Below are positions 17,655 to 58,345 of a stretch of 64,000 nt of DNA, piece by piece (the first letter of the stretch is position 1; every line of letters starts with the position of its first letter). Under the pieces are notes generated by a model. That model worked only from the letters and a program-made list of their open reading frames with translations. It made no database searches and had not been told where the DNA came from. A program made the translations under genes and the position numbers. Where the stretch lies: assembly GCA_028277845.1 (NCBI GenBank), contig JANQFL010000087.1, positions 13,704-77,703 on the forward strand, read 5' to 3'. The DNA comes from Sneathiellales bacterium. Lineage in GTDB: Bacteria; Pseudomonadota; Alphaproteobacteria; JANQFL01.

Positions 17655-17687
17655 AGCTGCGTTAAGTATCGGCGCCGGTCGGGGCGG

Positions 17688-18617: not shown

Positions 18618-18657
18618 GACGTCGAACGGCAGGGCGTTATCCGATCGGCTAGGCAGG

Positions 18658-19365: not shown

Positions 19366-19369
19366 GGCG

Positions 19370-34447: not shown

Positions 34448-34488
34448 CGACCGAGGATACGTCGGTACGATTGCGCTGATAAGGCCGA

Positions 34489-34728: not shown

Positions 34729-34859
34729 GATTACGATGCTACACCGCAATCACAAAAGAAGCGTAAACAATACTCGCTGAAGATAATTACGTCACTGCAG
34801 CGCTGTACTTGCACTATTCAAGATGAATTACACGAATATAATTCTACCGGATCGCGAGA

Positions 34860-35828: not shown

Positions 35829-36119
35829 CGTTCTATTCCAGCGGGCAGTTGACACCGATTTGCCACGGAAAGATTAGGGCCGGTTAAGCAACCCGTTGCA
35901 CAGTGCATCCCATGCCGAATCTAATCGGCAATGTAAAAGACACCGTTAAGCAAAGGTCACGAAGTCCATAAAAATTGATGAAAACTCGACCCAATTGCGG
36001 TCCGAATAGTTAAATGTTTTGAAAACGTTATCCGGTTTACTCCGGTTCAAAGAGGTTGCGTACCCATGTTGCAGACGCCACACGACGAAAACGCTATCCC
36101 GGCTCCCAGGCCCAAGGGC

Positions 36120-36572
36120 ATGGAACGCCGGTTGACCTTGAGGCTCCTGAATTACTGGCAGGAGATCAAAGGCGTTCGCACGTTTCCGTCCCGTTTGGAC
36201 GTCAACGCCCAGGCCATCGCAGATATTTGGCCCAACTGCTATCTGTTGAAGATCGAAAAGGACGGCGAAGAGCCGATCTTCGACTACTTGGGACAGGATC
36301 TGGCCAAATTTTCCGGGGTATTCGTCAGCGGCAACACGGTTTCCGAAACACATCACAACACCCTGCTCGACCAGGCCATCCGCTATTTCAGCGAGGCTCT
36401 GGCGACTCGGGCGCCGGTCATCGGCGACGACGAATTCGTCCGCTTCGACGGGACGCGTATTATTTACCGCAGCATCATTCTGCCGTTGAGCGAGGACCAG
36501 GAGCACATCACGCATCTGCTGGGCGCCGCCAACGGCAAGGAAGTCGCTGCGTTCGAAGACGAAGGCGAATAG
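36120..36572 (+). CDS. PAS-like small sensor-domain protein (tentative)
   Basis: ~150 aa single-domain protein whose pattern suggests a PAS-type fold (LLNYWQEIKG...CYLLKIEKDGEEPIFDYLGQDL); start at Met 19 of the ORF. Confidence 0.35.
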   Translation: MERRLTLRLLNYWQEIKGVRTFPSRLDVNAQAIADIWPNCYLLKIEKDGEEPIFDYLGQDLAKFSGVFVSGNTVSETHHNTLLDQAIRYFSEALATRAPVIGDDEFVRFDGTRIIYRSIILPLSEDQEHITHLLGAANGKEVAAFEDEGE

Positions 36573-36582
36573 GAAACCTCAC

Positions 36583-37407
36583 ATGATCGGATTCCGCAAA
36601 GCCGTCCTGGGTTTGTCGATCGCAGCCATTGCCGCCGTGGCGAGCGGCGCGGCGGATGCCAAGATGCCCCGTTCGCTGCTCGGGTCGGTCGGCAAGGCGA
36701 CCGGAGCCGCTGCCGGCAGGGCCGCGGCGAAAATGATCATGCGATCCGGCTCGGAACGGCAGGACAGCCAAATCCAATCCGGGAGCCGCGCAAAGATCAG
36801 AACGGCCACGCGGACCGTGACCGTCGCGCCATCGCCATTCATCAGCCAAGGCGACAACCCGCAAATCCGGATGATTTTGACGAAAGCGGAACGGCATTTC
36901 GTCATGCAGGACTACGACAACAGCTTGAAACTGCTGTCCGGACAGACGGTACAGGACCATCCGCACGCCAAGTTTCTCACCGGTATTCATCACGAATACG
37001 GACTGGCCACCACGCGGGACGATGCCAAGGCAGCGGAACACTACGAAGTGGCCGCCGCCAAAGGGCATGCCGCCGCGCAATACAATCTCGGCCTGATGTA
37101 CAGCGACGGGCGCGGCGTCGACCGCATGCCCGACCGGGCTCTGTTGTGGATCGAACTGGCCGCCAATCAGGGACTGCCAGATGCGCAATATGCCCTGGGC
37201 CTGCTGTACTACAATGGCAAGGGCGCCGAACAGGACCTGGTGGTCGCCCTGAAATGGTTTGAAGTCGCCGCCGGCTACGGCCATACCAGCAGCGAACAGA
37301 ATATTGCCCCCTTGTCCAAGTCGATGAAAAAGGACGACGTGGTCCGGGCCCGGCAATTGGCCTCCATCTGGCGGCCGTCGAAACGCAATCCCGCGGCACC
37401 ACGCTAG
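36583..37407 (+). CDS. Sel1-repeat secreted protein
   Basis: Signal peptide (AIAAVASGAADA) and Sel1 repeats (AQYNLGLMYSDGRGVD..., AQYALGLLYYNGKGAEQD...). Confidence 0.7.
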   Translation: MIGFRKAVLGLSIAAIAAVASGAADAKMPRSLLGSVGKATGAAAGRAAAKMIMRSGSERQDSQIQSGSRAKIRTATRTVTVAPSPFISQGDNPQIRMILTKAERHFVMQDYDNSLKLLSGQTVQDHPHAKFLTGIHHEYGLATTRDDAKAAEHYEVAAAKGHAAAQYNLGLMYSDGRGVDRMPDRALLWIELAANQGLPDAQYALGLLYYNGKGAEQDLVVALKWFEVAAGYGHTSSEQNIAPLSKSMKKDDVVRARQLASIWRPSKRNPAAPR

Positions 37408-37486
37408 CCGCAACCGCAGACCAACCAGACCCAGCAAAACCGTAAACCGTCAGCAGCGGCGCGTAGTGCCGGTGCGGAGTATAGGT

Positions 37487-37894
37487 ATGAGTTCTGTGTT
37501 CAACATCGGTGTCTCGGGCCTGCATGCGGCCGTGACGCGCACGTCGGTATCCGCCAACAACATCGTCAACGCACGCAGCAATCCGGTCCGCCCCGCCTCG
37601 GCTCCGCCGCCGGCCAACCCCGATCCGGCGCAAACGGAATTCCAAGCCCTGAAGGTTTATCAGAAAGCCGTGGAAGGCGGGGGGACACAGGCCTACACCA
37701 GACCGGTGACACCGCCGGCTGTTCAGGTACCCGATCCGTATGCCGAGGACGGTTCCGGCGTCAGCTACGTGCCCAACGTGTCCTACGAAGTGGAATTCGT
37801 TGAACAGATCCGTGCCGAACATGCCTACAAGGCCTCGGCCAAGGTGATCGAAACGGCCAAGGAAATGGACGAGACCCTGCTCGACATTATCTAG
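37487..37894 (+). CDS. flagellar basal-body rod protein, FlgC-like
   Basis: N-terminal rod motif (FNIGVSGLHAAVTRTSVSANNIVNA) and C-terminal rod motif (DPYAEDGSGVSYVPNVSYEVEFVEQIRAEHAYKASAKV); the middle is proline-rich. ORF could start 7 codons earlier (37466). Confidence 0.55.
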   Translation: MSSVFNIGVSGLHAAVTRTSVSANNIVNARSNPVRPASAPPPANPDPAQTEFQALKVYQKAVEGGGTQAYTRPVTPPAVQVPDPYAEDGSGVSYVPNVSYEVEFVEQIRAEHAYKASAKVIETAKEMDETLLDII

Positions 37895-37950
37895 ACCACG
37901 ACAACTGCCGGTTTGATGCTATGCTGCGCGCACCCTCAAATCGGCGCGTC

Positions 37951-38763
37951 ATGGATACTTTCATTCGCATCGCCATTTATGTCGGCATCGGTTATGTGCT
38001 GATCGTGATTTTGGCCGCCTGTTTCCAGCGCTCTTTGCTGTACTTTCCCGACCAGAACCTGCCGGCGCCGCAGGCGGTCGGCGCAACCGGGTTTGCCGCG
38101 GTCAGGTTGACCACCACCGACGGGCTCGACCTGACATCCTGGTACCTGCCGCCGCGATCGGAAGAGAACCCGGTGATCGTGCTGTTTCACGGCAACGCGG
38201 GCAATATCGCACACCGGCTTTTCAAGGCGGTGCCGCTGGCGAGTTCGGGCTACGGTATCCTATTGCTGGAGTACCGCGGCTATGGCGGGAACCCCGGCAG
38301 TCCGACGGAGGAAGGGCTGTATCACGACGGCCGGGCGGCGATCGCGTTCCTGCGCGCGAACGGCGTGTTCGAAAACCGTATCGTCTTGTACGGCGAATCT
38401 CTCGGCAGTGGCGTCGCGGTGCAGATGGCGACAGAGATCACGGCGGGTGCCTTGATACTCGAGGCGCCCTATACCTCCATCCCCGAGGTTGCCGGCAAGC
38501 ACTATCCCATCCTGCCGACCGAATGGCTGACCAAGGACAAGTTCCGCAACAAGGACAAGATTACGGACCTGAACGAGCCGCTGCTTATCGTGCATGGCGC
38601 CAAGGACGACATCATCCCCGTGCAAATGGGCCGCCAGCTCTATGCCCTGGCGCCGACGCCCAAGAAATCCTTCTGGGTGCTGGGCGCTGGACACAATGAC
38701 GTGTTCGGCCCCGAGGTAGCCGACGAGGTGCTCATGTTCATCGACAAATACGTAAATGGCTAA
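37951..38763 (+). CDS. alpha/beta-fold hydrolase with N-terminal membrane anchor
   Basis: TM helix (IAIYVGIGYVLIVILAA), HGNAGN oxyanion-region motif and nucleophile elbow GESLGSG. Confidence 0.7.
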   Translation: MDTFIRIAIYVGIGYVLIVILAACFQRSLLYFPDQNLPAPQAVGATGFAAVRLTTTDGLDLTSWYLPPRSEENPVIVLFHGNAGNIAHRLFKAVPLASSGYGILLLEYRGYGGNPGSPTEEGLYHDGRAAIAFLRANGVFENRIVLYGESLGSGVAVQMATEITAGALILEAPYTSIPEVAGKHYPILPTEWLTKDKFRNKDKITDLNEPLLIVHGAKDDIIPVQMGRQLYALAPTPKKSFWVLGAGHNDVFGPEVADEVLMFIDKYVNG

Positions 38764-39194
38764 AACGCGCCAGCCTCTTCAAATGCTTTCGATATGGCCT
38801 GAAACGGCAGCATGACGCAGATATGACGGCTTTTGTGGCCGGCGACCGGCGTGAACGCATCCAGTTCGGCCCATTCGCCGTCGGGCGGGTTTTCACCCTT
38901 CTTCAGAATGGCCTCCAATTGCGCGGCGACGGCGGCGATTTCTTTCGCGTCGTGTCCCTTGGCGTGGCCGCCGACGACGGAAGCCGAAGCCTGGCACAAC
39001 ACGCAAGCGCGTACCTTGTGGGCAAGCTCGATGACCCGGCCGTTTTCATCCAGCTTGATTTCCAGGGTAATGCGGTCGCCGCACAGGGGATTGTCCACCG
39101 TCACCTTGGCATCGGGCTGGTCCAGTTGACCGGCGCCCACGGCATCGGCAGCCAGGCGCAACAATTGTTTCTGATAGATCTCGTCACTCATCAT
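38760..39194 (-). CDS. Fe-S cluster assembly scaffold/sulfur-acceptor protein (NifU N-terminal/SufU-like)
   Basis: Three conserved Cys contexts (NPLCGD, ACVLCQAS, HICVML); immediately downstream of the cysteine desulfurase with 7 nt spacing. Confidence 0.65.
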   Translation of the reverse strand: MMSDEIYQKQLLRLAADAVGAGQLDQPDAKVTVDNPLCGDRITLEIKLDENGRVIELAHKVRACVLCQASASVVGGHAKGHDAKEIAAVAAQLEAILKKGENPPDGEWAELDAFTPVAGHKSRHICVMLPFQAISKAFEEAGAF

Positions 39195-39200
39195 CCGTAC

Positions 39201-40436
39201 TCAAACAAGTTTACCCATGGCGTCGTCCAAACCGCTCAATAGCGCTTCCACGTCGGCATCGTCGTTGTAAACGGCGAGGCTGGCCCGCGTCGTGCCGATG
39301 ACGTCGTAGAAGTCCATCAGCGGCTGGGCGCAATGATGGCCACCGCGTAATGCCACGCCATGACCGTCGAGGATTTGGCAAATGTCGTGCGGGTGTGCGC
39401 CTTCGATATCGAAGGAAATGACCGGTAGGCGTGATTGCAACCCTTTCGGCCCGATCAGCCTGATGATGCCGCGGCCTTTGTCGAGATTGTCCAGGCCGTC
39501 GATGATGCGTCCGGTGAGACGGCTGAGATGCCCGGCCACCGCCGCCGTATCCACGCCCTGCAGCCATTCCGCCGCCGCCGCCATGCCGACCGCTTGGGCA
39601 ATGGGCGGGGTGCCCGCCTCGAACCGGTGGGGCGGTGGGGCGAATACGGTTTCCTCGATGGTCACCCGGTGAATCATTTCGCCGCCGCCATGGAAGGGCG
39701 GCATGTCGGCCAGAAGCTCGGCTCGGCCCCACAACACGCCGATGCCGTTGGGTCCGAACATCTTGTGGCCGGAGAAGGCGTAGAAATCCACGTCCAGCGC
39801 CTGTACGTCGATGGCGCCGTGGGGCACCCGCTGGGCACCGTCGAGCAACACCTTGGCGCCCACGGCCCGGGCCGCCTCGACCACCCGGCCGACGGCGGTT
39901 TCCGCGCCGGTGACGTTGGAGACATGGGTAACCGCGACCAGCTTGCACTTCTCCGTCACCAGATCGGCCAGGGCGTCCACGTCCAGCCGGCCATCAGGCG
40001 TGGCCGGCACGACCTTGAGCACCACGCCGGTGAGGTCGCGCAATAACTGCCACGGCACGATGTTCGAATGATGCTCGAGCACCGAAATGACGATCTCGTC
40101 ACCCGCACTCAAACCATTGCCGAAGCTGTGCGCCACCAGGTTGATGGCGCCTGTCGTGCCGGAGGTGAAAACCACCTCGTCGGCATCCGCCGCGTTGACG
40201 AACCGGGCCAGGGTATGACGGGCCTGCTCGAACGCCTCGGTCGCTTCCTCGGCCAGGGTGTGCACGCTGCGCAGCACGTTTGCCCGGTGCCGGGTCTCGT
40301 GCTGTTGTATAGCGTCGAGCACGGCCGCCGGCATTTGCGCCGTCGCACCGTTGTCCAGGTAGTGCAGGGCGCTACCCTGAATGTCGCGGTCCAGTATCGG
40401 GAACTGCCGGCGGATCGGCGTCGGGTCAAACCCCAT
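39201..40436 (-). CDS. sufS: cysteine desulfurase, SufS type (class V aminotransferase)
   Basis: PLP-lysine region FYAFSGHKMFGPNGIGVL and active-site Cys region RGGHHCAQP. Confidence 0.85.
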   Translation of the reverse strand: MGFDPTPIRRQFPILDRDIQGSALHYLDNGATAQMPAAVLDAIQQHETRHRANVLRSVHTLAEEATEAFEQARHTLARFVNAADADEVVFTSGTTGAINLVAHSFGNGLSAGDEIVISVLEHHSNIVPWQLLRDLTGVVLKVVPATPDGRLDVDALADLVTEKCKLVAVTHVSNVTGAETAVGRVVEAARAVGAKVLLDGAQRVPHGAIDVQALDVDFYAFSGHKMFGPNGIGVLWGRAELLADMPPFHGGGEMIHRVTIEETVFAPPPHRFEAGTPPIAQAVGMAAAAEWLQGVDTAAVAGHLSRLTGRIIDGLDNLDKGRGIIRLIGPKGLQSRLPVISFDIEGAHPHDICQILDGHGVALRGGHHCAQPLMDFYDVIGTTRASLAVYNDDADVEALLSGLDDAMGKLV

Positions 40437-42076
40437 TACGTTGCTGCCTTCTTGTAATCGCTGAGTGCCTGAACGGTGTCGATATCGATCAGGATGGCGT
40501 CGTCCTCGACGGGCACTTCACAGACCATTTCCTCGTTTTCGCCGATAATGTGCCGGGCCCCCACATCGCCGGAAATCTTCCGCATGGCGGAAAACAGTTC
40601 GGCCGGCCACAGCACCGGATTGCCGCGCTTGCCGTCATAAGTGGGTACGCAGACGCCGCGGCCCTCCAGCGGATTGAAGGCGGCAATCAGCTTGTTGACC
40701 AAGGATGCCGATACCCTGGGCATATCGCCGAGACAGACGACCGCACCGTCGACGTCGCTGCCGAACGCGGATTCCACGTGACCGATGCCGACTTTCAGCG
40801 ATGTGCTCAAGCCGGCGGCGTAGTCGGGGTTGTGCACGAAACGCACGTCCAGATCCTTGAGAATGTCACGGACATTGTCCTGTTCGTGCCCGGTGACGAC
40901 GACGATATCGCGGACATGACTGGCCGAGACGTTTTCCACCACCCGGCGCACCATGGCGATGCCGTCGATATCGGCCAAAAGCTTGTTGATGGCGCCCATG
41001 CGCCGGGACTGGCCGGCGGCCAGGATGACGGCGGCAATTCGCGGTTCGTGGGGCACGACAGGCTCCAACTTTTCCCGGGGTTGCGGACGGCTGACGATTT
41101 CCTTGAGCAACCCGCCGCCACCCATGCGCATGATGTCGGTGCGTGAGGTGTCGATCCCGGCGGCAATACGCTGCAGCACCCAGTCGAAGCCATTCAGCTT
41201 CAGCGACCGGGCACAGCCGGGCACGCCGATGACCGGATCGTCGCCATGATGGGCCAGCAGCAGCAGATTGCCCGGATCGACAGGCATGCCGAAATGGTCG
41301 ACCGTGCCGCCGGCATCCTCGATGCCGGCCGGCACCACGTCGCGGCGGTCGACGATGGCGGAGGCGCCGAAGACCAGGATCGGACTGTAGCCTTGCGCCT
41401 TCAACGAGCCGACGGCCGCCGCGATTTCGTCCTGCCGGTGCCGGCAACGCAGTTCAATACCCAACGTACTGTCGAGCGCCGCAAGCCGGGTCCGCACGGT
41501 CTCCGAGGTTTTGTCGAGAATGCTCTCCTTCATGCCCTCGACGCTGGTCAGCACCAGGCCGGCGTTCATCGGCTTATACGCGGCCAGCTGCAGCAACGGC
41601 GCATTGTCCGCCGCGACCTGCTCCCAGGCATCCAGGGTGGCTTCAGGCGTGGAGAAGGGGATGATCTTGATGGTCGCCACCAGTTGTCCGGCCCGCACGG
41701 GCTCGTAGCGGTTCAGGGTAGCGATAGTCACGGTTTCGTCGATCAGGTTGAGCGCATCGATGCATTCGGGATCGAAATCCAGCAGGCCGTCGCCGTCGGC
41801 CACCAGGTTGCATCGGCCGGTGAACGGCACCGCCATACGCAGGCCTTCACCGCAGACCGCGGCGGCGATGCGGGCGGCGGCTTCGTCCTCGTGTACGTCG
41901 CCGTCTTCGAGCCGGGCCGCGATGACTTCGGTGACGCCGGCCGCCGTCAGGGCCGCGACGTCGTCCTCGTTCAGCAGACGCCCCTTTTTGAACCGGGCGC
42001 CCGACGCATTGGTACTGTGGGCCAGTATGGCGCCAGCGGCGTCCGCGACCGGGATGGTGCCGAAGCGCACGGTCAA
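40436..42076 (-). CDS. molybdopterin-binding domain fused to MobA/MocA-like nucleotidyltransferase (molybdenum cofactor cytidylyltransferase-like)
   Basis: N-terminal MoeA/CinA-like molybdopterin-binding region; C-terminal NTP-transferase motif AAVILAAGQSRRMG. Confidence 0.65.
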   Translation of the reverse strand: MTVRFGTIPVADAAGAILAHSTNASGARFKKGRLLNEDDVAALTAAGVTEVIAARLEDGDVHEDEAAARIAAAVCGEGLRMAVPFTGRCNLVADGDGLLDFDPECIDALNLIDETVTIATLNRYEPVRAGQLVATIKIIPFSTPEATLDAWEQVAADNAPLLQLAAYKPMNAGLVLTSVEGMKESILDKTSETVRTRLAALDSTLGIELRCRHRQDEIAAAVGSLKAQGYSPILVFGASAIVDRRDVVPAGIEDAGGTVDHFGMPVDPGNLLLLAHHGDDPVIGVPGCARSLKLNGFDWVLQRIAAGIDTSRTDIMRMGGGGLLKEIVSRPQPREKLEPVVPHEPRIAAVILAAGQSRRMGAINKLLADIDGIAMVRRVVENVSASHVRDIVVVTGHEQDNVRDILKDLDVRFVHNPDYAAGLSTSLKVGIGHVESAFGSDVDGAVVCLGDMPRVSASLVNKLIAAFNPLEGRGVCVPTYDGKRGNPVLWPAELFSAMRKISGDVGARHIIGENEEMVCEVPVEDDAILIDIDTVQALSDYKKAAT

Positions 42077-42762
42077 CCCCGCCGGAAGGTCTGTACGACC
42101 TCCGCCAACACGGACACGGCGATCTCGGCGGGCGACTTAGCGCCGATATCCAGGCCGATGGGGCCATGGATGCGGGCCATGTCGTCGTCCGTGAAGCCTT
42201 CCGCCCGCAGTCGTTCCAACCGGGCGGCGTGGGTGCGGTTGCTGCCCAGCGCGCCGATATAACTGGCGTTGGAGCGTAAGGCGGTGACCAGGGCCGGATC
42301 GTCGATCTTGGGATCGTGGGTGAGGGTGACGATGGCGCACTGGCTGTCGAGGGACCGTTCCGCCAGGGCGTCATCGGGCCAGTCGTTGGACAGGTCGATG
42401 CCGGGAAAACGCTGTTCGTTGGCAAAAGCCCGGCGCGGATCGATAACCGAGACCTGAAAACCGGCCACGGACGCCATGGAAACCAGGGCCTGGGTTATGT
42501 GCACGGCGCCGACCACGAACATGCGTTTCGGCGGATTGAAGACATTGAGAAACAGCTTGTCGCCGGCCACCTCGACCACGCCGCCGCGATCCGAGCGGAA
42601 GGCATTGCGCACGGCGTCGACCAGCACCGGATCGGCGTCCGAGGTATCCAGTTCCGATTCGTAGAAGAACGCCTGATCCCCGGACTCCAGGTTCGTCGCC
42701 AATACGACCGGCACCTTGCCGGCGCGGTCGGCGATGAGCTGTTCGAGATCCTGGGTTCTCAT
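42073..42762 (-). CDS. XdhC/CoxI-family accessory protein, Rossmann-like C-terminal part
   Basis: XdhC C-terminal-like sequence (MFVVGAVHITQALVSMA...GALGS); overlapping stop/start with neighbours. Confidence 0.6.
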   Translation of the reverse strand: MRTQDLEQLIADRAGKVPVVLATNLESGDQAFFYESELDTSDADPVLVDAVRNAFRSDRGGVVEVAGDKLFLNVFNPPKRMFVVGAVHITQALVSMASVAGFQVSVIDPRRAFANEQRFPGIDLSNDWPDDALAERSLDSQCAIVTLTHDPKIDDPALVTALRSNASYIGALGSNRTHAARLERLRAEGFTDDDMARIHGPIGLDIGAKSPAEIAVSVLAEVVQTFRRG

Positions 42763-42780
42763 CCGGTTCTATCCGCCCGC

Positions 42781-43128
42781 TCAGTCGATTTTTTCCACGA
42801 AGACTTGAATCTTACCGCCGCAGGCCAGGCCCACTTCCCAGGCCTCGCTGTTGCTGACGCCGAATTCCAGCAGCCGGGGTTTGCCCTCCTGGATGACTTC
42901 CTGGGCTTCCTGCACGACGGCGCCTTCGATGCAACCGCCGCTAACTGATCCCGCCATCTGGCCGTCCTCGTCGATGGCCAGCAGGCTGCCGACCGGCCGA
43001 GGGGCCGATCCCCAGGTCGATACGACCGTCGCCAGAGCGACTTGCTTGCCGTCGCGGGTCCACGTTGCGGCTTTCTCCAAAATATCGTCGTGGCCGCCGG
43101 GATCGATGGTCGCTGTCGCCTGTGTCAT
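42781..43128 (-). CDS. XdhC/CoxI-family accessory protein, N-terminal domain (split gene)
   Basis: XdhC N-terminal-like motif (VALATVVSTWGSAPRPVGSLLAI); start at Met 7 gives ATGA overlap with the coxE stop. Confidence 0.6.
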   Translation of the reverse strand: MTQATATIDPGGHDDILEKAATWTRDGKQVALATVVSTWGSAPRPVGSLLAIDEDGQMAGSVSGGCIEGAVVQEAQEVIQEGKPRLLEFGVSNSEAWEVGLACGGKIQVFVEKID

Positions 43129-44339
43129 GCCGCTTGTGTGCTCCATTCCGAGACGCTTTCTTCGGTCCGCGGGCCCTGTTTCATCAAGGCATCCGCCAGG
43201 TCCTGCAGACTATTCAAGTTATGAACCGGCCGGAAATCGTCAACATGGGGAAGAATGGCCTGTATGCCCTTTGATTTGGGCTCGAAGCCGCTGTAACGCA
43301 ACAAGGGATTAAGCCAGATCAGCCGACGGCACGACTTGTGCAGCCGCTCCATCTGGCTGTCCAGGCCTTCGCCGGCGTCCCGGTCCAAACCGTCGCTGAT
43401 CAGCAGCAATACGGCGCCTTGCCCCAGAACCCGGCGCGACCAAACGGTGTTGAACTCTTTCAGGCATTCGCCGATGCGGGTGCCGCCGGACCAGTCCTCG
43501 ACCACTTCGCCGACCTTTTGCAGCGCTACGTCGACGTCGCTTTGCCGCAGATACCGGGTCACGTTGGTCAAACGGGTGCCGAAAGTAAAGGTATGCACCC
43601 GGTCCCGGTCGTTGGTGATGGCGTGCAGGAAATGCAGGAACATGCGCGAATAGTGGCTCATGGAGCCGGACACGTCGCACAGGATGACCAGCGGCGGGTG
43701 CCGGAGCGAGCGGGATCGCCGGCGCAACGGGATCTGGCTGCCGCCGGTACGCAGGCCTGCACGCATGGACCGGCGCATATCGATGCGCGGGCCACTGGGA
43801 TCGGCGACGAACCGCCGGGTCGGCACCTGCATGATGGGCAGGCGCATGCGGGCGATGATGGCCTTGGCCTTGGCAATTTCCTCGGCGGACATGGATTCGA
43901 AATCCATGGTGCGCAGCATTTCCTTGTCGGAATAGGTCAGGGTGGCATCGAGCTCGACCTCCCGCTCATCACCTTCGCGCTCGCTGACATCCGGCGTATC
44001 GCCGAACATGGCATCGGCAAGACGCTTGTCGCCGGCCGCCTTCTCCTTTTCCTCGCCTTCGGTCCGCACGGTCGGCAGCAGCATGGCCATGGCCTTTTCC
44101 AGCATCTGCGGATTGCGCCAGAAGACATGAAATGCTTGATCGAACAACTCGCGCTGGTCGCGCCGGTTGACGAACACGCAGTGCAGGGCCCAGTAGAAAT
44201 CCTGACGGTTTTCCAGCCCGGCCGCCTCGACCGCGCGGACGGCGTCGATCACCCGGCCGGGTCCGACCGGCAGACCGGCCGCGCGCAAGACCCGCGCGAA
44301 GTACATGATGTTCTCGAAGAGGCGACCGTGCACTGCCAT
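43125..44339 (-). CDS. coxE: VWA-domain CO dehydrogenase accessory protein CoxE
   Basis: C-terminal VWA domain with MIDAS-like DVSGSMS. Confidence 0.75.
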   Translation of the reverse strand: MAVHGRLFENIMYFARVLRAAGLPVGPGRVIDAVRAVEAAGLENRQDFYWALHCVFVNRRDQRELFDQAFHVFWRNPQMLEKAMAMLLPTVRTEGEEKEKAAGDKRLADAMFGDTPDVSEREGDEREVELDATLTYSDKEMLRTMDFESMSAEEIAKAKAIIARMRLPIMQVPTRRFVADPSGPRIDMRRSMRAGLRTGGSQIPLRRRSRSLRHPPLVILCDVSGSMSHYSRMFLHFLHAITNDRDRVHTFTFGTRLTNVTRYLRQSDVDVALQKVGEVVEDWSGGTRIGECLKEFNTVWSRRVLGQGAVLLLISDGLDRDAGEGLDSQMERLHKSCRRLIWLNPLLRYSGFEPKSKGIQAILPHVDDFRPVHNLNSLQDLADALMKQGPRTEESVSEWSTQAA

Positions 44340-44354
44340 GGAACTGCCGCCGCT

Positions 44355-45275
44355 CTACTTGGGTGCTGCCGCCATCTCCTGGTCGATGGCTTTCAGCATG
44401 TTGGCGGCCTCGCTGCCCTGAACCTTGGCGATATCGTCCTGGTATTTGAGCAGCGCGCCGAGGGTGTTGTTGACCGTCTCGGGGTCGAGCACCATGACGT
44501 CCAGTTGCTGCAGGGCCTTGGCCCAATCGATGGTCTCGGCGATGCCGGGCAGTTTGAACAGGTCGCCGGTGCGCAGTTTCTGCACGAAGGCGACGATCTG
44601 TTCGGCCAGACGCTCATCCGCACCGGGCACCTTGCGCTCGAGGATTTCCAGTTCGCGGGCGGCATCCGGGTAGTCGACCCAGTGATACAGACAACGCCGC
44701 TTCAGGGCGTCGTGAATCTCGCGGGTCCGGTTCGAGGTGACGATGACGATGGGCGGTTCCGGGGCTTTGATGGTGCCGATTTCCGGGATGGTGATCTGGT
44801 TGTCGGCCAGGACCTCGAGCAGGAAGGCCTCGAACGCCTCGTCGGAGCGGTCCAGTTCGTCGATCAGCAGCACGGGCGCGCCGCCGGCATGAGGTTCGAG
44901 CGCCTGCAATAGGGGCCGCTCGATCAGGAACTTGCGGGAGAAGATGTCCTTGCTGAGCACGTCGCGGTCGGTGACTCCTTCCGCCTCCGCCAGGCGGATT
45001 TCGATCATCTGGGCTTGGTAATTCCATTCGTAGACGGCGGAAGCGGAATCCAGGCCCTCGTAACACTGCAGACGGACCAGATCGCGGCCCAGAACCTCCG
45101 AGAGGACCTTGGCGATTTCGGTCTTGCCGACCCCGGCTTCCCCTTCCAGGAACAACGGGCGTTGCAGCGATAGGCTGAGGTAAAGCGTCGTCGCCAGAGA
45201 GCGGTCGGAGACATAGTCCCCTTCGGTCAGCATGGCCAGGGTGTCGTCAACGGATGAGGGCAGGGGTCGTGTCAT
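44355..45275 (-). CDS. coxD: MoxR-like AAA+ ATPase CoxD
   Basis: Walker A GEAGVGKT and Walker B LLIDELDR. Confidence 0.8.
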   Translation of the reverse strand: MTRPLPSSVDDTLAMLTEGDYVSDRSLATTLYLSLSLQRPLFLEGEAGVGKTEIAKVLSEVLGRDLVRLQCYEGLDSASAVYEWNYQAQMIEIRLAEAEGVTDRDVLSKDIFSRKFLIERPLLQALEPHAGGAPVLLIDELDRSDEAFEAFLLEVLADNQITIPEIGTIKAPEPPIVIVTSNRTREIHDALKRRCLYHWVDYPDAARELEILERKVPGADERLAEQIVAFVQKLRTGDLFKLPGIAETIDWAKALQQLDVMVLDPETVNNTLGALLKYQDDIAKVQGSEAANMLKAIDQEMAAAPK

Positions 45276-45401
45276 CGGGGCACCGGTACAGATCGGACAA
45301 ACGGAAACGAGGGGAGGCGGTGCCTCCCCTCGTTCAACTTAGTGACGAATCCCCCTGCCGACCAGCCCAAAAGGCCTATTTCGGCTAAGGATTCCGCGTC
45401 A

Positions 45402-46199
45402 TCAGCCGCCCGCGGCGTCCGCCGCCCGGCCGGCCATGACCTTGACCAGATGGGCGCGGTATTCCGGCGTGGCGTGAATATCGCTATTGAGGCCATCGGC
45501 GGATACCGAAGCGCCGTCCAACGCCGACGACGACAGACCACCGGCCAGAGCCTGTTCCAGCGAGGACGCCCGGAACACACACGGTCCCGCGCCGGTCACG
45601 GCCACGCGCACGCCGCCGCCGGTCTTGGCCACCATGACACCTACTAGGGCATAACGGGATGCCGGATTGTGGAACTTCTGGTAATTGGCTGCCTCCGGAA
45701 CCGGGAAGGAAACCGAGGTGATCAGTTCCCCTTCTTCCAACGCGGTTTCGAACATGCCGGTGAAGAAGTCATCCGCGGCGATGCTACGCTTGTTGGTGTT
45801 GACCGTGGCGTTGAGTCCGAGCACCGCCGCCGGATAGTCCGCCGCCGGGTCGTTGTTGGCGATGGAGCCCCCGATGGTGCCACGGTTGCGGACCTGGGGG
45901 TCGCCAATGCCGCCGGCGAGGGCGGCGAGGGCGAGAATGGCCGCAGCCACATCGCCGGATGCCGCCACGTCGGCGTGCCTGGTCATGGCGCCGATGGTCA
46001 CCGAATCGCCGGACACGGTAATGCCCTGCAATTCGGATACACCGGACAGGTCGACCAAGTCGGACGGCGCCGCCAGACGCTGTTTCAGCGTCGGGATCAG
46101 CGTCTGTCCACCGGCAAGGAAACTGCCGTCTTCTGCGCCCGCCGCTGCTGCAGCCGCATCAGCGACACTGCCGGGCTTGTGATATTGAAAGTCATGCAT
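45402..46199 (-). CDS. coxM: CO dehydrogenase/xanthine dehydrogenase-family FAD-binding medium subunit
   Basis: FAD-binding LAGGQTLIP motif and medium-subunit C-terminal region. Confidence 0.8.
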   Translation of the reverse strand: MHDFQYHKPGSVADAAAAAAGAEDGSFLAGGQTLIPTLKQRLAAPSDLVDLSGVSELQGITVSGDSVTIGAMTRHADVAASGDVAAAILALAALAGGIGDPQVRNRGTIGGSIANNDPAADYPAAVLGLNATVNTNKRSIAADDFFTGMFETALEEGELITSVSFPVPEAANYQKFHNPASRYALVGVMVAKTGGGVRVAVTGAGPCVFRASSLEQALAGGLSSSALDGASVSADGLNSDIHATPEYRAHLVKVMAGRAADAAGG

Positions 46200-46211
46200 G
46201 ATTCGCTTCCC

Positions 46212-48575
46212 TTATTCCGCAGCAGCCTTGGCGCTGTTCAGTGTCTGCCAAACCTTCAAAGGCGTGGCCGGCATGTCGATGTCGGCACCGATGGCATCGG
46301 TCACGGCGTTGATCACCGCGGCCGGCGAGGCGATGGCGCCCGCTTCGCCCGCACCCTTGACGCCCAACGGATTGAGAGGCGAGGGAACCGGCGACATGCC
46401 GATGTCGATGCTGGGCAGGTCGTCGGCCCGCGGCATGGCGTAATCCATGTACGAACCGGTGACCAACTGGCCGCTATCGTCGTCGTAGACGCAGCCTTCC
46501 AGCAACGCCTGGCCGACGCCCTGGGCGATACCGCCATGGACCTGGCCTTCGACGATCATCGGATTGATGACGTTGCCGAAATCGTCGACCGCAGAATACT
46601 TGATGATATCGACGACGCCGGTATCGGGATCGACTTCCACCTCGGCGATATGCACACCCGACGGGAAGGAGAAGTTGAGCGGATCATAGAACGCGGTTTC
46701 GTCCAGACCCGGCTCGAGGCCTTCCGGATAGTTGTGCGGGACATAGGCCGCAAAGGCGACTTCGCCGATATTCATGGCCTTATCGGTACCGGCCACCGAG
46801 AAATTGCCGCCCGAGAACTCTATGTCCTCCTCGGCGGCTTCGAGCGCGTGCGCCGCGATCTTCTTGCCTTTCTCGATGATCTTGTCGGCTGCCTTCATGA
46901 TAGCGGAGCCGCCGACGGCGATCGACCGGGAACCGTAGGTGCCCATCCCGAACGGACCCTTGTCGGTGTCGCCTTCGACGACCTCGACGTTTTCGTAGGG
47001 CACGCCTAGTTTGTCTGCGACCACCTGGGCGAACGTCGTGGCGTGGCCCTGGCCGTGGCTGTGGGTACCGGCCAAAACGGTCACATTGCCGGTCGGGTTG
47101 AAGCGGATTTGCGCCGCCTCCCACAGACCGACGCCGCCGCCCAGCGCACCGACCGCCGCCGACGGCGCGATGCCGCAGGCTTCGATGTAGGCGCTCAGGC
47201 CGACACCGCGCAGCTTGCCGCGCGATTGCGCATCCGCCTTACGGGCCGCCAGGCCGTCATAATCGGCCAGCTTGAGAGCTTCCTCGAGGGCCTTGGGGTA
47301 ATCGCCGCAGTCGTAGGTGTGCACGACCGGTGTCTCGTACGGGAACGCGTCATTGGGAATGAAGTTCCGCCGGCGGATTTCCGCCGGATCCAAGCCCATT
47401 TCCCGGGCCGCATTCTCGACCAAGCGCTCGACCACATAGGTCGCTTCCGGCCGTCCGGCGCCGCGATAGGCATCCACCGGTGACGTGTTGGTGTAGACAC
47501 CCTTGACCTCGGCATAGATGACCGGCGTGGTGTACTGGCCGGCCAGCAACGTGGCGTACAGGTAGGTCGGCACCGCCGACGCGAAGGTCGACAGATAGGC
47601 GCCCAGATTGGCGATGGTGCTGACCCGCATGGCGATGAACTTGCCGTTCTCGTCCATGGCCATTTCGGCGTGGGTCACGTGGTCGCGGCCGTGGGCGTCG
47701 GAGAGGAACGATTCGGACCGTTCCGCCACCCACTTGATCGGCCGGTTGACCCGGCGCGAGGCCCAAAGCGTGGCCGTTTCCTCGGCATAGACGAAGATCT
47801 TCGAGCCGAAGCCGCCGCCCACATCCGGCGCGATCACGCGCAGTTTGTGTTCCGGCGCGACCTGCAGGAAGGCCGACATGATCAGACGGCAGACATGCGG
47901 ATTCTGGCTGGTGGTGTACAGCGTCATGTCCTCGGTGCCGGGGTCGTACTCGGCAACCGCTGCCCGCGGCTCCATGGCGTTGGGAATCAGCCGGTTGTTG
48001 ATCATGTCCAAGGATGTGACGTGATGGGCCTTCGAGAACGCCTCGTCGACCACCGCCTTGTCGCCCAGCTCCCAGTCGTAGCAGATGTTGCCGGGGATAT
48101 CGGCGTGGATCTGTGGCGCACCGGCCGCGGCGGCACCGGCGGTATCGGTCACGCTCGGCAGTTCGTCGTAGTCGACCTCGACCAACTCGGCGGCATCTTT
48201 CGCCTGGTTGTAGGTGTCAGCAACCACGATGGCGACATGGTCGCCGACATAGTTGACCTTGTCGACGGCGAGGGCCGGGTGCGCCGGCGCGTTCATCGGC
48301 GATCCGTCCTTGGAGCTGATCATCCAGCCGCAGATCAACGGGCCGATGCCGTCGGCGGCCATTTCCTGGCCGGTCAGAACGGCGACCACACCCGGCGCGG
48401 CCGCGGCGGCGCTGGTGTCGACGCCATTGATCTTGGCGTTGGCGTACGGCGAACGGACGAAGTAGGCGTAAGCCTGTCCGGGCCTGTTGATGTCGTCGAG
48501 ATAGTTGCCCTTGCCGGTCAGGAAGCGTTGGTCTTCCTTACGGACGGTGCGGGTGCCAATTCCATTGTCAGCCAT
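46212..48575 (-). CDS. coxL: aerobic-type CO dehydrogenase large subunit, form II (molybdopterin-binding)
   Basis: 787 aa molybdopterin-binding subunit; active-site loop AYRGAGR (47451-47471) is the form II signature rather than AYRCSFR of form I. Confidence 0.85.
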
Positions 48576-48576
48576 A

Positions 48577-49044
48577 TCAGCCTCCCATACCTTGCGCGCC
48601 GGCCTTCACGGCTTTGACGATGTTGTGGTAGCCCGTACAGCGGCAGATATTGCCATCCAGGTTTTCGCGGATGGTCTCTTCCGACGGATTGGGGTTGTTG
48701 TTGACCAGATCCACGGCGCTCATGACCATGCCCGGCGTGCAAAAACCGCATTGCAGTCCATGGTTTTCGCGGAATGCTTCCTGCATCGGATGCAGCTGAC
48801 CGTCCTTGGCCAGACCTTCGATGGTGGTGACGTCGGCGCCGTCGGCCTGCAAAGCCAGGGTCGTGCAGGATTTGACGCTGCGGCCGTCGACGTGGACGAC
48901 GCAGGCGCCGCATTGGCTGGTGTCGCAACCGATGTGCGTGCCGGTCAGTCCGAGTTGGTCCCGAATAAACTGCGAAAGCAGAGTCCGCGCTTCGACTTCG
49001 CCGGAATACTGCTTTCCGTTCACCGACATGGAGACGGTGGGCAT
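48577..49044 (-). CDS. coxS: CO dehydrogenase small subunit, [2Fe-2S]-binding
   Basis: Two [2Fe-2S] motifs (CDTSQCGAC and CGFCTPGM...CRCTGY); start at Met 12 of the ORF. Confidence 0.85.
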
Positions 49045-49250
49045 AAGGCTCCTCCCTTTGTCGCGATCCGGGTTCATGGCCCGGATGCTGGATTTGTGAA
49101 TGACAGATTTTTGGGATTAGTCCGCCAAATCTGCCCATAGTTTCAAACTGTTAATCAGCGGGGTCAACACAGAATTTGCGCAACCCCAGGCAATGCTTCT
49201 AAATTTTCTGTGGTCCTCCCCTCGAACGGTCTTTTTGTCCCGACACGAAA

Positions 49251-49859
49251 TCAGCCGCCGCGGGAAATGAAAAACAAGACGACCACGACAACGGCCGCCA
49301 GCACGAGCCCCCAAATCAATGAATTAGACTTGCCTGCGTTTTCCGCAAGGGCCGGCACGGCTTCAGCCTGCAATTCTTCCATGACAGTTTCGGGTATATC
49401 TTCCGCCGCCGCTTCCGCACCGCCGCCGACCAGTTCCCGGAAGGTGGAGAAAAACTCATCCGCCATCTTGCGAGCGGTACCATCCACCAGGCGCGATCCG
49501 ATCTGCGCCAGCTTGCCGCCGACTTTGGCTTCAACGGCGTAACGCAGGACGGTTGCAGTACCGTCTTCTTCCAGCGTCACCTTGGCTTCGCCCTTGCCGA
49601 AACCGGCAGCACCGCCTTTGCCTTCGCCGGAAAGGGTGTAGCCGTTCGGCGGATCCAGGTCGGACAGAGTCACGTGGCCTTTGAATTTGGCCTTCACCGG
49701 ACCGACTTTCGCGGTGACGTCGGCACTGAATTCGGTGTCTGAAATCTTTTCCAAGGATTCACAGCCGGGAATACATTGTTTGAGGATTTCGGGATCGTTG
49801 AGCGCTTCCCAGACTTGTGTCCGGCTGGCCGAAATCCGCTGCTCCCCGGTTAGCTCCAT
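49251..49859 (-). CDS. coxG: CoxG-family (SRPBCC) protein with C-terminal membrane anchor
   Basis: CoxG-like N-terminus (MELTGEQRISASRTQVWEALNDPEILKQCIPGCE) and C-terminal TM helix; start at Met 52 of the ORF. Confidence 0.7.
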   Translation of the reverse strand: MELTGEQRISASRTQVWEALNDPEILKQCIPGCESLEKISDTEFSADVTAKVGPVKAKFKGHVTLSDLDPPNGYTLSGEGKGGAAGFGKGEAKVTLEEDGTATVLRYAVEAKVGGKLAQIGSRLVDGTARKMADEFFSTFRELVGGGAEAAAEDIPETVMEELQAEAVPALAENAGKSNSLIWGLVLAAVVVVVLFFISRGG

Positions 49860-50047: not shown

Positions 50048-52138
<2,091 letters not shown>

Positions 52139-52216
52139 GACGCTGTCAGGTCCGCATTAATCCGCCATTAACCATAACCGGAGACCATTCCTGCCGATGA
52201 CGGCGAGAATGGTCTC

Positions 52217-52873
52217 ATGAGTTACGCGGTACGCTCCAGCATCGACGTAGCGCTCTGGTTTCACGACCGGGCGGATACCGGCGGCCGGCATCTATCCGCC
52301 CAAAAACTGCAAAGGCTGTTGCTGTTGACGCAAGCCGGGTATGCGCCGCAGGGCCTGGAAATCGCCTTCATGCCGGCGATATTCGTTCCTTCATCCATGG
52401 GGCCGGTGGACCCCAACATCTTCGCCTTGTTCGAGAACGGACTTCCCGCCATGACGCGCCACCCCATGTCGGAGAGGGCGGACGCGCACTTGAACGCCGT
52501 GTGGAATACATACGGTACTGCCGGCGCGGAGGACTTACGCGCCACAATCGACGGGAATCTGAGCTGCATGCGCCTGGTCGCAGGAAATGATTCGGCGGTT
52601 CCCAAACCGTCGGTGCCGCAAAACGCCAACGACGCGCCCAACAAAGAAACACATACCGTACCACCCAAGCCCAAACAGCCGGTGAAACCGCATATCATCA
52701 AAGGACAATCGGAGCGCGATTCGGGCAAATCCGATAAGGGCGGCAGTGTTCTGGCAGACCTTGCCCGGGATCTGCAAGACATGCAGAAACCAAAAAAGAA
52801 GACGGCGAAGAGCCCCATCTCGATCGGTCGCAAGGACGTGCGCAAATGGCATCCGCACAAGCGCGCCGACTAA
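52217..52873 (+). CDS. Panacea (DUF4065, SocA-like) domain protein with Lys/Pro-rich basic C-terminal tail
   Basis: N-terminal ~90 aa match the Panacea pattern as I recall it (DVALWFHDRA...LSAQKLQRLLLLTQAGY...MGPVDPNIFALF); C-terminal ~90 aa are low-complexity and basic. Confidence 0.5.
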   Translation: MSYAVRSSIDVALWFHDRADTGGRHLSAQKLQRLLLLTQAGYAPQGLEIAFMPAIFVPSSMGPVDPNIFALFENGLPAMTRHPMSERADAHLNAVWNTYGTAGAEDLRATIDGNLSCMRLVAGNDSAVPKPSVPQNANDAPNKETHTVPPKPKQPVKPHIIKGQSERDSGKSDKGGSVLADLARDLQDMQKPKKKTAKSPISIGRKDVRKWHPHKRAD

Positions 52874-52928
52874 GCCCACGAACGACCATCCCAAAACACG
52901 TTAACTATATGAAATATCGTTGAAATTT

Positions 52929-52960
52929 TGTCCGGACACATTAACTCGGGTGTCGGGACA
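52929..52960 (+). promoter_or_regulatory. pair of operator-like 10 bp palindromes upstream of the RHH-encoding ORF
   Basis: TGTCCGGACA (52929-52938, perfect palindrome) and TGTCGGGACA (52951-52960), centres 22 bp apart, ~100 bp upstream of the ATG at 53058. Confidence 0.3.
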
Positions 52961-53057
52961 CGATAGACGGTACGTTCCCACACGAAATGTGTTGTGATGA
53001 TTGCGTTGCGGCCGACATTGGCGGGAGCGCAACGAATTGCTGCAAGGACGACCAGCG

Positions 53058-58337: not shown

Positions 58338-58345
58338 CTGGTCCG

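Follow-up and report, generated by a model that had tools for sequence, protein, structure and literature searches.

Among the described systems closest to the locus reported here are the form I [CuSMoO2] CO dehydrogenases (CODHs) of Oligotropha/Afipia carboxidovorans (coxMSLDEFG, pHCG3) and Mycobacterium smegmatis (8uem). A second group, form II, is represented by the coxSLM-coxDEGI locus of Cupriavidus metallidurans CH34 (Rmet_0359-0365) and by a locus on chromosome 1 of Paraburkholderia xenovorans LB400, and the S-L-M-D-E-G-XdhC layout has been published as form II for CH34 (PMC2864759). The motif AYRGAGR in CoxL serves as the definition of form II (King and Weber, 2007, as quoted in two 2026 papers). 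The function of form II enzymes is still described as unresolved in two 2026 papers, in line with the statement of an earlier note on this DNA that their physiological substrate is unsettled. A third point of reference is the XdhC-NifS4-MoeA pathway of Rhodobacter capsulatus, in which MoeA hands the molybdenum cofactor (Moco) to the chaperone XdhC, where the bound Moco is sulfurated by the cysteine desulfurase NifS4 (PMC2997495; PMC13653126).

The window, the whole 64,000-nt stretch of a Sneathiellales genome that was analyzed, contains at positions 38760–49859 what is probably a single 11-kb minus-strand operon for a form II (AYRGAGR-type) xanthine-oxidase-family enzyme and its own proteins for maturation and membrane coupling. 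Gene identities were assigned from Pfam and NCBIfam profile matches. It is an ordinary yet complete form II CODH-like molybdenum enzyme operon from an alphaproteobacterium. All of the genes named in the earlier note (coxG, coxS, coxL, coxM, coxD, coxE, separate genes for the N- and C-terminal domains of XdhC, and a MoeA-like/MocA fusion) were found on the minus strand; the bounds given there, 40436–49859, stand for these genes but fail at the left end, where sufS and a SufU-like gene extend the operon to 38760. The genes in this part of the locus are tightly packed: the xdhC C-domain gene and the fusion gene overlap by about 4 nt, the sufS start overlaps the fusion stop by 1 nt, and 6 nt separate sufS from the SufU-like gene. 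The operon terminates with the latter, since a convergent gene, for an alpha/beta-hydrolase, has its end at 38763.

The CH34 and LB400 loci share with the window the AYRGAGR motif, the S-L-M order, coxD, coxE, coxG and XdhC-type genes. In the window, however, coxG comes first, XdhC is divided between two genes, and the MoeA-like/MocA fusion, SufS and the SufU-like protein have been added, whereas the betaproteobacterial form II loci carry a single XdhC (CoxI) after coxG and are without these extra genes. Form I clusters also have accessory types in common with the window, namely a MoxR ATPase, a VWA protein, an XdhC-like protein and CoxG. The logic proposed below for the window is that of R. 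capsulatus, where a MoeA-type protein donates Moco and an XdhC chaperone and a cysteine desulfurase likewise take part. That pathway works with Mo-MPT and an undivided XdhC, and unlinked housekeeping genes encode its desulfurase and MoeA; in the window, a single operon encodes the enzyme and all of these parts, XdhC comes in two pieces, MocA is fused to the MoeA-like part and the cofactor would be MCD.

The small subunit gene, coxS (48577–49077, minus strand), encodes Fer2_2 (E 1.6e-35) and Fer2 domains for two [2Fe-2S] clusters, and all eight of the eight cluster cysteines are seen in its translation. Translation may actually begin at Met 12 of this ORF, because relatives align from about residue 12. 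The 787-aa product of coxL (46212–48575, minus strand) is the molybdopterin (MCD) subunit, with Ald_Xan_dh_C, MoCoBD_1 and MoCoBD_2 domains, and coxM (45402–46199, minus strand) encodes the FAD-binding medium subunit, with FAD_binding_5 (E 1.2e-47) and CO_deh_flav_C. These domain matches show that CoxS, CoxL and CoxM would form the usual trimer of two [2Fe-2S] clusters, Mo-pterin and FAD, the same three-subunit architecture as in form I CODHs, to which identity is 39–40%. The ORF coordinates together with the domain matches confirm the S-L-M order reported previously; the form I order coxM-coxS-coxL, which is that of pHCG3B and pBN2, is not found in the window.

The AYRGAGR codons occupy 47451–47471 on the minus strand, exactly where the earlier note had placed them, and correspond to CoxL residues 369–375. 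Of 83 close relatives, 80 have exactly this motif, while in the same alignment the pHCG3B and pBN2 form I references read AYRCSFR. As the CoxL loop is AYRGAGR instead of AYRCSFR, the protein is without the Cu-ligand Cys; alignments to 8uem, 1ffu and 1n5w place a Gly at the form I Cys position, with the catalytic Gln (TSQNPH) and Glu (GAGEAG) of the family retained. Neither form I model reaches its cut-off with CoxL, which scores 671.5 bits against 991 for TIGR02416 and 617 against 950 for NF040766. The CoxL phylogeny proposed as a check was run as a neighbor-joining tree from approximate distances, with a Qor outgroup sequence copied from an alignment print-out and with the standard form II references WP_011083168, WP_010909926 and WP_010970339 left out. 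It groups CoxL in a 100%-bootstrap clade with the S-L-M-D-E-G-XdhC loci of P. xenovorans LB400, Ralstonia and Cupriavidus, and both form I references fall outside this clade. CoxL proteins of the CH34/LB400-type loci in the clade are 64–66% identical to that of the window, and a Sinorhizobium S-L-M homologue is 63% identical and has the same motif. The loop, the gene order, the form I score below cut-off and the tree placement all agree and, at the level of sequence, support the assignment of CoxL to the form II type and not to form I.

It is nonetheless conceivable, if improbable, that the window encodes a genuine CODH of low affinity or conditional activity, its Mo site assembled by CoxD, CoxE and XdhC. 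The solved structures nearest to CoxL are form I CODHs (8uem from M. smegmatis best, at 649 bits, then 1ffu at 568), followed by the non-CODH Qor at 508, the accessory set coxD-coxE-xdhC-coxG is common to the O. carboxidovorans cox cluster, and according to a statement quoted in PMC2864759 Bradyrhizobium japonicum USDA110 relies on an enzyme of form II to oxidize CO. This is countered by the Gly in place of the Cu-binding Cys and by a CoxL score far under the curated form I cut-off, as well as by 2026 surveys, in which form II is left out of the true CODHs and isolates having form II alone are said often not to consume CO; one such survey also finds AYRGAGR in other Mo hydroxylases. The archaeal glyceraldehyde dehydrogenase/aldehyde oxidoreductase (NF041018-20; 4zoh) and quinoline 2-oxidoreductase (Qor; 1t3q), whose loop is AYRGVGF as against AYRGAGR in the window, are among the top-scoring characterized non-CODH relatives, and close relatives of the enzyme therefore oxidize organic substrates. 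Glyceraldehyde dehydrogenase models are the best NCBIfam match of all three window subunits, at scores below the NF041018/19/20 cut-offs (684 against 790 for CoxL as the alpha subunit, 216 against 350, and 247 against 290). By analogy with these relatives, oxidation or hydroxylation of an aldehyde or heterocycle would be a more likely reaction for the form II enzyme of the window than oxidation of CO.

Downstream of the structural genes, coxD (44355–45275, minus strand) encodes a MoxR-type AAA+ ATPase (AAA_5, AAA_3 and AAA matches) with a Walker A motif GEAGVGKT and a Walker B motif LLIDELD. Its homologue in O. carboxidovorans is required for sulfuration of the Mo site (PMC4240915). The partner of CoxD is encoded by coxE (43125–44339, minus strand), which matches VWA_CoxE (E 4e-70) and carries a DVSGS MIDAS-type motif.

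The accessory XdhC-like protein (2we7/2we8) and the MocA-like Rv0371c (2we9/2wee/2yes) of the mycobacterial CODH are single, unfused polypeptides, unlike their counterparts in the window. Here, the two domains of the XdhC family lie on two adjacent minus-strand ORFs and not on a single polypeptide: PF02625 (E 1e-28), with an SGGCIEG motif, on the N-domain ORF at 42781–43146, and PF13478 (E 7e-45), a Rossmann-like domain of 229 aa, on the C-domain ORF at 42073–42762. Joined into one sequence, the two give an end-to-end alignment with 2we7, a structure of the XdhC family (216 bits, residues 3–356). The N-domain ORF likely has its real start at ATG 43128, in an ATGA overlap with the coxE stop; no exact copy of the 121-aa form of this ORF was found in the protein collection, while an identical 229-aa C-domain product is called in the source record. 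The two ORFs share a reading frame and are only 18 nt apart, and a single XdhC of 330–350 aa is present in many relatives, both in Betaproteobacteria and in form I clusters, as would be expected if a sequencing or assembly error, a recent nonsense mutation or the decay of a pseudogene had broken one gene. Such an origin is exceedingly improbable. The N-domain ORF stops at a TGA that is followed by an in-frame TAG, so that two in-frame stops lie between the halves, and the C-domain ORF has its own ATG. The same break point recurs in 14 other loci of different families (the N part ending at q120/121 and the C part starting at about q1), in which the halves are in the same or other frames and overlap or are spaced, in Caenispirillum by as much as 7 kb. 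The window halves are 44–75% identical to these counterparts over their full length, and separate proteins are called both by the source record and by PGAP, whose Microvirga annotation has a pair of genes named "XdhC family protein." The choice between a true split and a frameshift, put forward by the earlier note as a point to check, is thereby settled in favor of the split: as read from these sequence comparisons, the fission of XdhC is an old inherited arrangement of alphaproteobacterial clusters and not a frameshift. It coincides with a second feature, a MoeA-like domain, encoded in 12 of the 14 split-XdhC loci and in none of approximately 37 single-XdhC loci.

In the window, this MoeA-like domain is part of a 546-aa fusion protein encoded at 40436–42076 on the minus strand. 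Its C-terminal half (40436–41056, minus strand) is a MocA-like CTP:molybdopterin cytidylyltransferase domain (LAAGQSRRMG…) with the MobA-like NTP transferase match of the MobA/MocA-type nucleotidyltransferase fold; MocA/YgfJ (TIGR03310) is its best NCBIfam family, over residues 349–536, at 156.4 bits against a cut-off of 186.45. The N-terminal half (41057–42076, minus strand; residues ~1–340) consists of a region of ~160 aa followed by a divergent MoeA-domain-III/MogA-like domain at ~165–310, whose match to PF00994 (E 3.4e-4, 20.8 bits) lies below the gathering score of 26.6. An hhalign comparison of this half with domain III of E. coli MoeA (172–320) brought the motifs into register at a statistically weak P of 0.022; no match was found to E. 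coli MogA or to PDB sequences, and fold searches with the fusion matched the C-terminal domain only. PF00994 is precomputed in many homologues of the fusion, and the AF2 model of the N-terminal half is confident (pLDDT ~90+). The earlier description of a "molybdopterin-binding"/MocA-like fusion is thus sustained for the MocA-like half, as a best family below cut-off, while its label for the N-terminal half has a weak match behind it.

By its sequence, the fusion is a typical member of a known family of ~540-aa proteins, designated "Molybdopterin-binding/glycosyltransferase family 2 protein" by NCBI and "molybdenum cofactor cytidylyltransferase" by JGI. Its relatives number 8000 or more at E ≤ 1e-5, and no experimental characterization of this family was found in the literature searched. 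Identity to 118 aligned homologues is 53–77%. Oceanibaculum indicum and Parvibaculum have the same neighborhood, coxD-coxE-xdhCN-xdhCC-fusion, whereas in Microvirga and Caenispirillum the two halves of the fusion are separate genes.

The most useful new point of the locus is the linkage of SufS and a SufU-like protein. The product of sufS (39201–40436, minus strand) is a group II cysteine desulfurase (TIGR01979, 520.9 bits against a cut-off of 475.1; Aminotran_5, E 8e-134) with the PLP Lys (SGHKM) and catalytic Cys loop (GHHCAQP) in its translation. The adjoining gene (38760–39194, minus strand) encodes a sulfur-transfer or scaffold protein that matches NifU_N (E 6.6e-12) and aligns over its full length with TIGR01994 (SufU), at 72.5 bits and so below the cut-off of 92.5. 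Its residues Cys38, Asp40, Cys64 and Cys126 form a pattern that we take to correspond to the zinc ligands of SufU. Among the 14 related split loci, sufS occupies an equivalent position in two (L005 and L025), and SufU-like homologues lie beside the cluster in five (L005, L011, L015, L025 and L081); with adjacency this infrequent, SufS and the SufU-like protein are optional components.

By analogy with R. capsulatus, the two proteins are candidates for a dedicated sulfur supply for the Mo=S group of the cofactor. Alternatively, though this is the less likely case, they may assemble the [2Fe-2S] clusters of CoxS, or belong to general Fe-S housekeeping and lie downstream by chance, and would then not be Moco sulfurases. 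Their family names are those of canonical Fe-S assembly components, the PGAP name of the Microvirga homologue is "iron-sulfur cluster assembly scaffold protein," and most related clusters are without an adjacent SufS. Yet sufS begins within the stop codon of the gene for the MoeA-like/MocA fusion and comes directly after XdhC, sufBCD genes were not found nearby, and SufU-like genes are present only in split-XdhC loci, beside xdhC or coxG (five loci and the window). Moreover, the action of a cysteine desulfurase on XdhC-bound Moco is an established bacterial route (PMC2997495; PMC13653126).

Taking Moco sulfuration as the preferred role of this pair, a working scheme can be proposed on the model of characterized homologues. 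The MoeA-like domain of the fusion would bind Mo-MPT, to which the fused MocA domain would add CMP to give MCD. The two-piece XdhC, an N-domain protein with a Rossmann-domain protein, may then hold MCD during sulfuration, in which a SufS persulfide relayed by the SufU-like protein would turn Mo=O into Mo=S. The CoxD (AAA+) and CoxE (VWA) pair could aid sulfuration or insertion once the apoenzyme has folded. The mature enzyme would thus be expected to carry a sulfurated MCD cofactor (Mo=S) and to pass electrons through FAD to quinone delivered by a tail-anchored CoxG.

In the product of the first gene of the operon, coxG (49251–49859, minus strand; PF06240, E 1.5e-40), an acidic/Ala-rich linker joins a SRPBCC (CoxG) domain to a transmembrane helix at the C-terminus (…LIWGLVLAAVVVVVLFFISRGG); the source record lists an identical product of 202 aa. 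CoxG of M. smegmatis has the same architecture, and extraction of quinone has been described for CoxG bearing such a C-terminal helix (PMC12202499). On this analogy, CoxG of the window is a predicted quinone shuttle or anchor, tethered to the membrane. The C-terminal helix, which had gone unmentioned in the earlier note, has a Kyte-Doolittle peak of 3.1, and by that criterion similar transmembrane tails are present in 13 of 50 relatives.

The operon lies entirely on the minus strand, and its genes were assigned by ORF listing together with Pfam and NCBIfam scans. In the order of transcription it begins with coxG (49251-49859; CoxG/SRPBCC, E 1.5e-40), followed by coxS (48577-49077), with two [2Fe-2S] domains, coxL (46212-48575), encoding a 787-aa protein of three xanthine-oxidase-family domains, and coxM (45402-46199), which is FAD-binding. 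These are succeeded by coxD (44355-45275), encoding a MoxR-type AAA+ protein, coxE (43125-44339; VWA_CoxE, E 4e-70), xdhC-N (42781-43146), which carries the XdhC_CoxI N-domain alone, xdhC-C (42073-42762), which carries the XdhC Rossmann domain alone, and a gene for a 546-aa fusion protein (40436-42076), residues ~347-540 of which constitute a MobA/MocA-type nucleotidyltransferase. The earlier note had placed the cluster at 40436-49859; every gene that it named, from coxG to the fusion, is present, but the left end falls short, since two further genes continue the operon to 38760. The first, sufS (39201-40436), encodes a 411-aa cysteine desulfurase (TIGR01979, 521 bits against a cut-off of 475), and the second (38760-39194) encodes a 144-aa SufU-like NifU_N protein that matches TIGR01994 over its full length at 72.5 bits, under the cut-off of 92.5. 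The start of sufS overlaps the stop codon of the fusion gene and the SufU-like gene begins 6 bases past sufS; from coxD to the SufU-like gene, neighboring genes overlap or are separated by at most 18 nt, with an ATGA overlap between coxE and xdhC-N if the start of xdhC-N is Met7. Because a convergent alpha/beta-hydrolase gene ends at 38763, the operon is taken to end at the SufU-like gene.

The products of coxL, xdhC-C, sufS, sufU, and the 202-aa coxG are identical to those of the source record. Near the operon, an Rfam scan revealed neither a Moco riboswitch nor any further RNA element, a scan for promoter and terminator signals returned nothing above chance, and no second cox or XOR-family locus, paralogous or form I, is found within the window. 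The products are singletons at 90% identity in a cluster look-up; the locus is thus new as a member, while its kind is well known, widely annotated, and ordinary. What it adds of some interest is limited to the translationally coupled sufS-sufU pair and the strict pairing of split XdhC with a MoeA-like domain.

In the active-site loop of CoxL, AYRGAGR occupies residues 369-375 (47451-47471), exactly where it had first been read. Residue-level alignments show that CoxL keeps the catalytic Gln and Glu of the family and that the copper-ligating Cys of the form I loop, AY(R/A)CSFR, is replaced by Gly. CoxL scores 671 against the form I model TIGR02416 (cut-off 991), 617 against the form I model NF040766 (cut-off 950), and 684 against the archaeal glyceraldehyde dehydrogenase model (cut-off 790). 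Its nearest solved structures are form I CO dehydrogenases (8uem, 649 bits; 1ffu, 568; 1n5w, 532), and quinoline 2-oxidoreductase is the next match at 508 bits. A scan of species-representative genomes recovered at least 594 relatives, headed by a protein of 75% identity from an alphaproteobacterial MAG of the Red Sea. The AYRGAGR motif is unchanged in 80 of 83 close relatives and is retained in a Sinorhizobium S-L-M homologue of 63% identity; in two form I references AYRCSFR stands in its place. In a neighbor-joining tree (44 sequences, 772 columns, 100 bootstraps), CoxL falls with Paraburkholderia xenovorans LB400, Ralstonia, and other betaproteobacterial loci in a clade with 100% bootstrap support. 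These loci share the layout coxS-L-M-D-E-G-xdhC, which, together with the AYRGAGR motif, has been published as form II in Cupriavidus metallidurans CH34 (PMC2864759). Outside it branch the form I references, and farther out the Qor/Arthrobacter-type enzymes; Qor serves as a labelled outgroup only, as its sequence may contain copying errors. Motif, S-L-M gene order, and tree position therefore agree in assigning the predicted enzyme to form II, as had been proposed from the sequence, and the phylogeny suggested as a check places it among loci of form II layout.

That the substrate of form II enzymes is unsettled, as was also stated at the outset, accords with surveys from 2026, which treat form II function as unresolved. 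There is a low probability that CO is the substrate of the window's enzyme: B. japonicum is cited as oxidizing CO with a form II enzyme (PMC2864759), but isolates with form II alone often fail to consume CO in the 2026 surveys. CO dehydrogenase-like enzymes of form II abound among the Proteobacteria of soil and sea and inflate gene-based estimates of CO oxidizers. In annotation, the window's enzyme should be left out of the count of CO dehydrogenases, and its locus is not better placed than hundreds of others to reveal the form II substrate. Phaeobacter plasmids carry an S-L-M paralogue of 56% identity in the neighborhood of pedF and pqq genes; on plasmid pP11_a of Phaeobacter gallaeciensis (6614-20209), the coxS-L-M homologue with AYRGAGR (CoxL 57% identical) occurs without coxD, coxE, coxG, or xdhC and is set among pedF, encoding cytochrome c-550, and pqqABCDE. 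This context gives a mild hint, and no more, that the clade might handle alcohol- or aldehyde-derived substrates.

XdhC is a single protein in betaproteobacterial form II loci and in form I clusters, unlike the two ORFs of the window. Here, xdhC-N ends in TGA and is followed nine bases on by a second in-frame stop, TAG, ahead of the xdhC-C ATG; therefore, one sequencing error or read-through cannot join the halves. The two domains are likewise encoded by separate ORFs in 14 other loci (L001, L005, L008, L011, L012, L015, L024, L025, L041, L061, L081, L090, and L091 of the homologous loci compared, and a Microvirga plasmid as annotated), all with the same break, in which the N-domain ends at query residue 120/121 and the C-domain starts at about residue 1. 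Across these loci the halves may or may not share a frame, and they either overlap or are spaced. In Caenispirillum salinarum (L015; NZ_CP085224.1, ~7585-8501 and 15760-17576), the N-domain gene is found on the upstream side of coxG and 7 kb separate it from the C-domain gene; the PGAP annotation of Microvirga ossetica lists two genes, for products of 108 and 230 aa, under the name 'XdhC family protein'. When the two products of the window are joined, they align continuously and end to end with the mycobacterial XdhC-family structure 2we7 (residues 3-356, 216 bits), and no part is lost at the junction. The earlier note had left a choice between a true split and a frameshift, and the two stops, the shared break, and the continuous alignment decide for the former: judged from sequence, the split is a real, inherited gene fission, mostly in Alphaproteobacteria. 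It should accordingly not be 'repaired' as a frameshift in annotation. Stop-codon read-through or selenocysteine at the junction was also considered and is out, as TAG follows TGA in frame and relatives use other frames.

The fusion protein belongs to a family with at least 8000 matches at E ≤ 1e-5, named 'molybdopterin-binding/glycosyltransferase family 2 protein' by NCBI and 'molybdenum cofactor cytidylyltransferase' by JGI. A confident AlphaFold2 model built from a 119-sequence alignment contains two domains (pLDDT 90.5, pTM 0.88) joined by a low-confidence linker at residues 330-336. A sequence search of the PDB with the N-terminal 340 residues returned no match; its ties to the MoeA/MogA molybdopterin-binding fold are weak, consisting of matches to PF00994 (E 3.4e-4) and to domain III of E. 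coli MoeA (172-320; hhalign P 0.022), the latter aligning the GGxS…D and PGN motifs in register, with residues 1-160 an unassigned stretch. Microvirga and Caenispirillum encode the MoeA-like and MocA parts in two genes, and in C. salinarum MocA lies on the opposite strand, ~3 kb away. Neither split XdhC nor the fusion is a peculiarity or an error of this locus; both are traits shared across the family of alphaproteobacterial form II clusters. The interval between coxM and coxD holds 1.4-6 kb of unrelated genes in five homologous loci (L007, L011, L061, L063, and L091), and in Oceanibaculum indicum (L090) coxD-coxE-xdhCN-xdhCC-fusion occurs by itself, the 10 kb upstream containing no coxSLM. 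These five maturation genes behave as a unit that can be separated.

In Rhodobacter capsulatus, XdhC takes Moco from MoeA, and the cysteine desulfurase NifS4 sulfurates the bound Moco (PMC2997495, PMC13653126); in O. carboxidovorans, CoxD assists sulfuration or insertion (PMC4240915). A pathway modelled on such characterized homologues can be laid over the observed domain content, operon structure, lack of a Cu ligand, and conserved layout. CoxSLM would be an MCD/[2Fe-2S]/FAD hydroxylase-type enzyme requiring a Mo=S ligand, oxidizing its substrate and reducing quinone via CoxG. The MoeA-like domain would bind Mo-MPT, the fused MocA domain would make MCD, and the XdhC N and C proteins would hold the cofactor jointly; SufS with a SufU-like relay would then be the operon-encoded equivalent of NifS4, and CoxD and CoxE may aid sulfuration or insertion. 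In L005 and L025, too, the fusion gene is followed by the sufS and SufU-like pair, and a SufU-like gene without SufS lies beside the cluster in L011, L081, and C. salinarum, in the last upstream of coxG together with the XdhC N-domain gene. The pair may instead serve Fe-S assembly, a less probable alternative suggested by the narrow distribution of its members, with adjacent SufS in just two related loci and SufU-like genes in five; the NifS4 precedent is the counterpart on the side of Moco sulfuration. Of the 14 loci with split XdhC, 12 carry a MoeA-like domain, whereas it is absent from all of ~37 single-XdhC loci; these counts do not represent independent events, as the loci are phylogenetically related. 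Because of this strict co-occurrence, the fission may be functionally tied to the MoeA-like partner, within a tentative and rather doubtful broader proposal in which the alphaproteobacterial form II cluster is a self-contained sulfurated-MCD line, running from the fusion through two-subunit XdhC to SufS/SufU-like, and the first in bacteria with a dedicated operon-encoded Moco desulfurase and relay. The sufS-sufU coupling and the co-occurrence suggest a testable model for dedicated MCD sulfuration, and with it a concrete hypothesis on how bacteria add the Mo=S sulfur to MCD enzymes. The locus offers a clean, complete alphaproteobacterial layout that brings together all maturation steps (MPT handling, cytidylylation, XdhC in two pieces, a cysteine desulfurase and its relay protein, the AAA+/VWA pair, and a tail-anchored CoxG) and is a convenient cassette for heterologous expression.

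In CoxG, an SRPBCC domain is joined through a linker to a C-terminal helix of strong hydrophobicity. M. smegmatis CoxG, for which the same architecture has been described, takes menaquinone out of the membrane and hands it to the FAD site of the enzyme (PMC12202499). Tails in relatives include a TM helix in some and none in several Hyphomicrobiales, and membrane attachment of CoxG seems to differ between lineages. CoxG of the Paraburkholderia/Cupriavidus type has a conserved basic tail, KRKRSWTAWISKS, and no TM helix (homologous loci L036, L039, L045-L050, L052, L056, L058, L059, L066, L067, L069, and L071).

Divergently upstream of coxG, the plus strand at 50048-53891 encodes a 696-aa FadJ/FadB-like enoyl-CoA hydratase/3-hydroxyacyl-CoA dehydrogenase, under equivalog cut-offs, a 218-aa protein without a family match, and a 296-aa EF-hand protein, none evidently linked to the cox operon; two homologous loci (L034 and L062) have FadB-like fragments at their edge. 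On the other side, the G+C minimum of the window falls in 34000-37900 (0.54 at 34-36 kb), where Sel1-repeat proteins (34860-35855, minus strand; 36583-37407, plus strand), a PAS_5 protein (36066-36572), and a small Flg_bbr_C-domain protein (37466-37894) are encoded, all neighbors unrelated to the operon. The homologous module in Parvibaculum (L091) and Oceanibaculum (L090) is likewise flanked by PAS_5 and Flg_bbr_C genes, which suggests that the host is a related alphaproteobacterium. A tRNA (32825-32899, plus strand) is the sole Rfam match in the window, and the site shows no sign of the boundary of a genomic island, as the adjoining ORF is of the arginase family and not an integrase. Farther along, a run of membrane-protein genes on the minus strand (54933-61063), with Proton_antipo_M domains and resembling Mrp antiporter or NADH-dehydrogenase-like subunits, coincides with a strong plus-strand AT skew of 0.18-0.27.
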